Shown here: positions 53,447 to 53,958 of the stretch, one piece after another | Numbering within the stretch: the first letter of the stretch is position 1 | Layout of the letters: each line of letters begins with the position of its first letter | From: Escherichia coli | GTDB lineage: Bacteria > Pseudomonadota > Gammaproteobacteria > Enterobacterales > Enterobacteriaceae | DNA length: 64,000 nucleotides | Assembly (NCBI RefSeq): GCF_003334815.1 | Contig: NZ_QOWO01000012.1 | Strand: one strand, 5' to 3' | The notes under the pieces: generated by a model | Told to the model about the DNA's origin: nothing | The model's database searches: none | Seen by the model: only the letters and a program-made list of their open reading frames with translations | Translations under genes and position numbers: made by a program

Positions 53447-53688
53447 AAAAAAGGCGACAGATTACTCTGTCGCCTTTTTTCCTGACTCATAACCCTTAAC
53501 GGGTCTTACAATCCTTGCAGGCCGCCAACACACCCTGTTTTTCCTTTAGCCGGAACAATCCGTGTTGATTCCATTTCCGTTTAATTACGTCTCCGGACGT
53601 TTGTCTTCCTGACAATCATCTGTCTTCGCCTCCTGGCGCTCCTGACCCTCATCCTGAGTCATTGTTCCTGTTAGCGTCCTCGCTCTAT
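53447..53688 (-). ncRNA. csrC: CsrC small RNA (CsrA-sequestering), ends approximate
   Basis: Minus strand carries 13 GGA triplets in about 240 nt, many as CAGGA/AGGA in likely loops, and ends in a strong intrinsic terminator (ggcgacagagtaatctgtcgcc + T6); no long ORF on that strand; location between yihI and engB matches where I recall csrC. Confidence 0.8.
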
Positions 53689-53958
53689 GGGTGCTACTTT
53701 ACGCCTTTGCTTTAAACAAACAATCAACCGCCATCAGTATTTGCACATTTTCAGAGTTTTATATAAAAGCAATTCACTGATTTATATAGCTTATTTGACA
53801 TGCATCGCAGAATTTTCTCTGCTATTTCGCATAAAGACTATCGGCAATGTCTCACAAAGCGTATGGCTTTTACTTACAACGCTCACGCCGAAAAATCCGC
53901 CTTTTATTATGGTTCAGGTATAATCGCCACAAAGCTTTGACTGACGGAGACGACCGCT

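Follow-up and report, generated by a model that had tools for sequence, protein, structure and literature searches.

Introduction

The CsrA-sequestering sRNA CsrC has been characterised since 2003, is annotated in Escherichia coli K-12 and is curated in Rfam. Published work on this RNA describes 14 putative CsrA sites and the binding of approximately nine CsrA dimers (PMC3856055). Phosphorylated UvrY, from the BarA-UvrY system, activates csrC transcription without the IHF that csrB needs, and the RNA is short-lived, which allows CsrA activity to be reset quickly (PMC7652899, PMC4682653). In E. coli csrC, ChIP-exo and DNase footprinting showed that UvrY binds the sequence TGTGAGACATTGCCGATA in vivo and in vitro (Zere et al. 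2015, PMC4682653). The conserved context of the gene, yihA-csrC-yihI, was reported as a rule by Kulkarni et al. 2006 (PMC1488887).

A described relative is CsrB (RF00018, clan CL00106), which shares the mechanism of CsrC: it is a multi-GGA CsrA sponge that is activated by BarA-UvrY and turned over by CsrD and RNase E. CsrB is longer than CsrC (about 366 nt with 22 GGA), adjoins syd, needs IHF for its activation by UvrY, has a near-perfect inverted repeat and binds CsrA with a higher affinity. The RsmY, RsmZ and RsmX RNAs of Pseudomonas are functional analogues, being GGA-loop RNAs that titrate RsmA/CsrA under the control of GacS-GacA, but they show no detectable sequence homology to CsrC, lie at other loci and have other upstream activating sequences.

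Here we describe csrC in a 64,000-nt stretch of E. coli DNA, which is called the window throughout. The gene is the already described, ordinary csrC, which encodes the second CsrA-sequestering sRNA of E. coli. Textbook accounts do not cover the rare loss of a conserved GGA, nor the observations made here on the fold of the 3′ domain and on the region between the terminator and yihI.

Results

Identity, ends and locus of csrC

When the whole window was searched against Rfam 15, the CsrC family (RF00084; gathering score 61) was matched with 276 bits and an E value of 4.9e-87. The untruncated match spans 53688..53435 (-) and covers model positions 1-255 of 255, and all 59 of the 59 consensus pairs of the Rfam CsrC structure are canonical in the window sequence. 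Within a clan (CL00106: CsrB, CsrC) Rfam reports the best family only, which for the window was CsrC. The RNA is identical at 245 of 246 positions to the ncRNA csrC (b4457, 246 nt) annotated in the curated K-12 MG1655 record. In K-12, csrC is placed between yihA/engB and yihI, which is the same locus as in the window. The gap between yihI and engB comprises 581 bp (53378-53958), as does the yihA-yihI intergenic region of K-12, and the single base by which this whole region differs from K-12 is the one within csrC. Strand relation, length, ends, terminator, UvrY inverted repeat and TGTAAG half-site are likewise shared with K-12. We regard it as virtually certain that 53443..53688 (-) is csrC, the CsrA-sequestering sRNA of E. 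coli and related enterobacteria. A search of 5,426 complete E. coli genomes detected the gene in 5,425.

An earlier note on this DNA had already named the sRNA as CsrC, and both the full-length covariance-model match and the identity to K-12 bear this out. Its estimate of the 5′ end, about 53688, coincides exactly with the 5′ end (+1, an A) given by the K-12 annotation and by Rfam. The span it proposed, 53447-53690, lay at the right locus, but its ends missed those of the RNA by 2 nt and 4 nt, the 3′ end being at 53443, and the gap that it put at 580 bp measures 581 bp.

Other RNA families were also found in the window. Just past yihA lies the gene for Spot 42 RNA (spf; 54717-54835 (-), 122.8 bits), where a small ORF, spfP, is annotated. 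The spf gene has been named among the genes beside UvrY ChIP-exo crosslinking sites in the neighbourhood of csrC (Zere et al. 2015, PMC4682653). The remaining matches above the gathering score were the ES222 sRNA, a SECIS_3 element, STnc370 and four naRNA4 copies, with spans at 46399-46506 (-), 19484-19542 (+), 44441-44509 (-), 1321-1398 (+), 10243-10405 (-) and 51114-51191 (-).

For comparison across species, an exact 19-mer from csrC was used to retrieve 95 stretches from one-genome-per-species contigs, and together with two E. coli reference loci these gave 97 loci. In 85 of them a CsrC homolog was detected by nhmmer. The other 12, including loci of Halomonas, Rudaea, Hyphomicrobium and Neoroseomonas, were left out, and most of these are probably chance matches to the 19-mer. 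Since the 19-mer was the search pattern, no variation can appear at RNA positions 49-67.

In 81 other species, including Salmonella, Citrobacter, Enterobacter, Klebsiella and Kosakonia, the RNA carries 12-17 GGA and 0-2 TCC, though identity to the window drops to approximately 60 %. The orthologs of these genera, with body sequences 59-88 % identical to the window, have the same synteny and share hairpins 1, 3, 5 and 9, the terminator, the promoter hexamers and the UvrY/SirA half-site near -167. Some Kosakonia-like CsrC RNAs lack hairpin 4 and the linker that follows it. The yihI gene lies downstream on the same strand, 51-69 nt away, in all 80 of the 80 loci in which it was captured, and yihA is found divergently upstream of csrC wherever that flank was captured. 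The features of the locus are collected in Table 1.

Table 1. Features of the csrC locus in window coordinates, ordered from upstream to downstream of csrC. Species counts refer to the aligned CsrC sequences.
Feature	Position	Strand	Basis and conservation
yihA/engB, divergent upstream neighbour	53959..54591	(+)	Window ORFs, annotation, K-12 record
TGTAAG half-site, 16 bp upstream of the inverted repeat	53873..53878	(-)	Position as in PMC4682653
UvrY-P inverted repeat TGTGAGACATTGCCGATA, 18 nt, -168..-151	53839..53856	(-)	Exact match to published site
Predicted -35-like element TTGTTT, 16-nt spacer	53718..53723	(-)	Predicted; weak match
Predicted -10 hexamer TAAAGT, -13..-8	53696..53701	(-)	Predicted from position relative to annotated 5′ end
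csrC sRNA, 246 nt	53443..53688	(-)	Rfam RF00084 and identity to K-12 b4457
Hairpin 1, GGA 53679-53677 in AGGA loop	53673..53684	(-)	Rfam consensus structure
Linker GGA, single-stranded, ACAGGAA	53666..53668	(-)	GGA in 42/42 species
Hairpin 2, loop GGA 53654-53652, followed by linker GGA 53642-53640	53643..53661	(-)	Both GGA in 42/42 species; the linker GGA is next to the search pattern, which in part accounts for its invariance
Hairpin 3, CGCC-AGGA-GGCG, loop GGA 53633-53631	53627..53638	(-)	Rfam; RNAalifold independently; its invariance across species follows from its use as search pattern
Hairpin 4, GACA-GAUGAU-UGUC, loop GGA lost via G71U at 53618	53611..53624	(-)	K-12: GAGGAU
Linker GGA (UCAGGAAG)	53607..53609	(-)	Present in 37/42 species
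Hairpin 5, ACGUC-CGGA-GACGU, loop GGA 53594-53592	53587..53600	(-)	Rfam; also RNAalifold
Two linker GGAs (CGGAAAUGGAA), 53578-53576 and 53572-53570	53570..53578	(-)	41/42 and 42/42 species
3′ domain, GGAs 53561-53559 and 53544-53542	53521..53561	(-)	Rfam pairing: helices 6/7
Loop GGA (CAAGGAUUG)	53512..53514	(-)	Present in 42/42 species
Hairpin 9, ACCC-GUUAA-GGGU, without GGA	53493..53505	(-)	Rfam; 98 % of cells paired; RNAalifold
Intrinsic terminator, A-tract/GGCGACAG stem, 4-nt loop, U-tract	53444..53483	(-)	Terminator scan
yihI (Der GTPase-activating protein), 169 aa	52868..53377	(-)	K-12 and PGAP annotation

GGA content and placement

On 53447-53690, 13 GGA were counted on the minus strand and two on the plus strand, an exact recount that agrees with the 13 minus-strand triplets within about 240 nt reported earlier. 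The 14 CsrA sites published for CsrC agree with the 14 GGA that we counted in K-12 csrC, one more than in the window. Across the 64 kb, GGA occurs with a mean of approximately 3.1 per 254 nt (sd 1.9), and a count of 13 was reached at 62 of approximately 127,500 positions. These positions fall in two places, the csrC gap and 36119-36466 (+), a coding stretch within a 678-aa ORF (35448-37484). The raw GGA density of csrC is extreme yet not unique, since this coding stretch ties it at 13 per 254 nt, and the raw count was for that reason rejected as a unique discriminator. The counts of the extended motifs AGGA and CAGGA do discriminate, and they are unique to csrC within the 64-kb window. AGGA occurs nine times at csrC compared to a mean of 0.57 over the window and a maximum of four on the other strand, and CAGGA occurs six times compared to a maximum of three on the other strand, while the coding stretch shows no enrichment of AGGA or CAGGA.

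In the Rfam consensus structure, five of the GGA motifs lie in apical hairpin loops (RNA positions 10, 35, 56, 95 and 175), five lie in linkers between hairpins (positions 21, 47, 80, 111 and 117) and one straddles a bulge (position 128). The other two are paired, at position 145 and, at the base of the terminator, position 207. Thus 10 of 13 motifs are in loops or single-stranded linkers and two are fully paired, so that in this structure the motifs are not mostly in stems, in line with the loop placement on which the reading as a CsrA-titrating RNA had been said to depend. Among 42 non-redundant sequences, 37-42 retain any given one of the 12 sites outside the terminator, whereas only 19 retain the 13th GGA (53482-53480), which is paired at the terminator base.

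Conservation of the secondary structure and an alternative 3′ fold

The Rfam structure was evaluated on the aligned CsrC sequences. With this structure 84.8 % of the cells were paired, compared to 41-50 % in slid controls. Doubly changed cells numbered 42, compared to 20.6 in shuffles, and none of 500 shuffles reached 42. The compensatory changes are located in hairpins 1, 5 and 6 and in the loop-closing pair of the terminator. The closing pair of hairpin 1, for instance, covaries (GC in 29 and AU in eight sequences), and in hairpin 5, where 95.5 % of the cells are paired, a compensatory change was observed between UA (31) and CG (seven). RNAalifold independently recovered hairpins 3, 5 and 9 and the terminator. 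The terminator has a stem of 18 pairs, seven of them G-C, followed by a T-tract, which confirms the textbook intrinsic terminator described in the earlier note. Across the alignment 98.5 % of its cells are paired, with covariation at the loop-closing pair.

The single sequence folds far more stably than its shuffled versions (z = -6.8). Its minimum-free-energy fold pairs the 5′ end with the region around position 160 and onwards (the 160s), which buries several GGA motifs. This fold was set aside, as its long-range helices have no comparative support.

A different pairing was found for the 3′ domain, where RNA positions 139-141 with 166-168 and 150-152 with 160-162 can form a two-tier hairpin (window 53550..53521 (-)). 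In a MAFFT alignment, 99.6 % of the cells of this hairpin were paired and 18 cells were doubly changed, a number reached by none of 500 shuffles, while Rfam helices 6/7 were 68.6 % paired in the same alignment, which is not structure-aware. The alternative fold may fit the comparative data better than helices 6/7, and because the alignment does not take structure into account we treat it as a lead. Under this fold the GGAs at positions 128 and 145 would also be unpaired, giving 12 of 13 unpaired motifs overall.

Promoter region and UvrY site

The csrC promoter was placed from the annotated 5′ end and from conservation across species. In the upstream alignment of 38 species, GTAAAGT, which contains the predicted -10 hexamer, is nearly invariant, and the (C)TTGT core of the -35-like element is kept in 38 of 38 species. 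The aligned species share a half-site, TGT(G/A)(A/G)GA, at -165..-169. Apart from this half-site near -167, GTAAAGT and the (C)TTGT core, which stand out as conserved islands, the upstream region is variable. When 53300-54000 was scanned for consensus sigma-70 promoters, none was found. The weak match of the -35-like element and the empty scan fit an activator-dependent promoter, although they are not positive evidence for one.

The 18-nt inverted repeat to which UvrY binds in K-12 has a single exact match in the window, at the position given in Table 1, with none expected by chance. The orthologs diverge from E. coli in the second half of this repeat; for Salmonella, for example, the published sequence is TGTGAGACATTGACCATT (PMC4682653).

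The intergenic region also contains a perfect TATAAT on the plus strand (53919-53924), 35 nt upstream of the start of yihA/engB, which is conserved across genera (GATTATACC on the minus strand). This hexamer is likely to belong to a divergent yihA promoter in the intergenic region that yihA shares with csrC.

Loss of one GGA by the G71U substitution

The only difference between csrC of the window and that of K-12 is G71U, at window position 53618 (T on the minus strand), by which the loop of hairpin 4 changes from GAGGAU to GAUGAU while its predicted stem is unaltered. The GGA in this loop is kept in K-12 and in 41 of 41 other aligned Enterobacteriaceae species. Among 5,426 complete E. coli genomes, searched with a 41-nt query for which all megablast seeds span the SNP, U71 was found in one, that of strain 52F4 (calf, Switzerland). 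Over 40000-64000 the window and 52F4 have one mismatch, at 40409 (G in the window, A in 52F4), so the window sequence is near-identical, not identical, to RefSeq 52F4. Genomes that are only four substitutions away from the window over 24 kb carry G71. Besides G71U, the window and 52F4 share three substitutions relative to their nearest complete genomes, MB10 and LR-64-2, at 44279, 44771 and 61357. By its coordinate 44771 falls in the CDS of typA and 61357 in that of srkA, and 52F4 has RefSeq accessions for both proteins that differ from those of the nearest genomes.

Since U71 is present in two non-identical sequences, G71U is probably a real lineage SNP. A sequencing error was considered less likely, as U71 is shared with 52F4 despite the mismatch at 40409, the other differences are plain substitutions and the accessions of the typA and srkA proteins differ as well. 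The substitution could make the CsrC of this strain a weaker CsrA sponge.

The yihI start and the block after the terminator

In 38 species a conserved ATGAA start of yihI was found 59-69 nt past the 3′ end of csrC. The ORF track had instead offered a 190-aa model of yihI with a TTG start at 53440, and the additional 21 codons are open in only five of 38 species. The correct start is that of the 169-aa protein at 53377, which the K-12 and PGAP annotations use and the earlier note had preferred, and the ORF-track model overshoots it by 21 codons. The argument that the longer model would run into the terminator held in part: the TTG does lie in the terminator tail, but 3 nt past the 3′ end of the RNA, and the hairpin is not overlapped.

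The 40 nt that follow the terminator (53403-53442 (-)) are 93 % identical across genera in the 38 species, compared to 79 % for the body of csrC. An invariant TATACT is found inside this block, at 53406-53411 (-), and in E. coli it is overlapped by a perfect inverted repeat, TAGATT-N8-AATCTA. No recognisable -35 for TATACT was found in the conserved block. The block with its TATACT is probably a yihI promoter or operator. A literature search on co-transcription of csrC and yihI, or on the conserved block, returned nothing.

Alternative explanations of the GGA-rich region

The annotation pipeline implies a different reading of the locus. In the PGAP records, including that of the source strain, a pseudo-CDS is placed inside csrC and there is no ncRNA feature for csrC or spf; this pseudo-CDS ('hypothetical protein; frameshifted; internal stop') is present in 52F4, MB10, LR-64-2 and the PGAP-annotated K-12 record. 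A degraded protein-coding gene at 53496-53662 (-), as this implies, could also appeal to a 39-aa ORF with a TTG start that does exist at 53615..53496 (-). This ORF is intact in only two of 42 species, though, and the indels in the csrC region have lengths not divisible by three. By codon position, variability is flat (0.211/0.209/0.216), and conservation tracks the GGA motifs and helices and no reading frame. Moreover, the curated K-12 record has an ncRNA and no CDS at the csrC locus. We consider a decayed gene extremely improbable, and the earlier statement that the gap holds no credible ORF stands, as csrC has neither a conserved ORF nor codon periodicity. At the other extreme, GGA richness might be a chance compositional feature of a functionless intergenic spacer, since the coding stretch at 36119-36466 (+) arrives at the same raw count. 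Against this stand the strand asymmetry of 13 to two, the AGGA counts given above, the conservation of GGA site by site across genera, the covariance-model score and the fold z-score, which together leave chance a practically negligible probability.

The neighbourhood of yihI suggests another possibility, that the GGA-rich sequence acts chiefly in cis as a leader, forming one csrC-yihI transcript on which CsrA would be recruited to control yihI. The short same-strand distance between the two genes, kept in 80 of 80 species, and the identity of the first 40 nt past the terminator would fit such a leader. The strong and fully conserved terminator, with its 18-bp stem and U-tract, nevertheless stands between csrC and yihI, a discrete 246-nt RNA is annotated in K-12, and the literature describes a free CsrC RNA that binds approximately nine CsrA dimers (PMC3856055). 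In addition, the invariant TATACT in the block could be yihI's own -10. A main role as leader is very unlikely in our opinion, if less so than a degraded gene, and some read-through into yihI would add to the trans function of CsrC and not replace it. The reading of the locus as a gene for a trans-acting, CsrA-titrating sRNA is the one that we follow below.

Discussion

By analogy with published K-12 and Salmonella work, from which CsrA binding, activation by UvrY and turnover are taken for the CsrC of the window, the locus would operate as follows. The csrC gene would be transcribed from its own weak promoter with +1 at 53688, and this promoter would depend on phosphorylated UvrY at the inverted repeat approximately 160 bp upstream. 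Transcription would be ended by the strong intrinsic terminator, giving the 246-nt RNA, which is predicted to display its GGA motifs mainly in short hairpin loops and single-stranded linkers. CsrA dimers would bind these motifs with high affinity, so that CsrC would titrate CsrA from its mRNA targets and relieve CsrA-mediated repression or activation. The level of CsrC, set by BarA-UvrY-driven synthesis and by decay that depends on CsrD and RNase E, would in turn set CsrA activity.

The practical value of this analysis is that of an annotation check, as a spurious PGAP pseudo-CDS stands in place of csrC and the ORF model of yihI is overlong. The G71U allele would matter only if CsrA sequestration were measurably lowered in this cattle-associated lineage. 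Finally, the terminator and the conserved 40-nt block might act together as one composite element through which csrC transcription is coupled to yihI expression, by read-through or promoter occlusion, which we consider unlikely. If true, such a coupling would tie the Csr system to the 50S ribosome-assembly factors yihA/engB and yihI, which flank csrC in every species examined.
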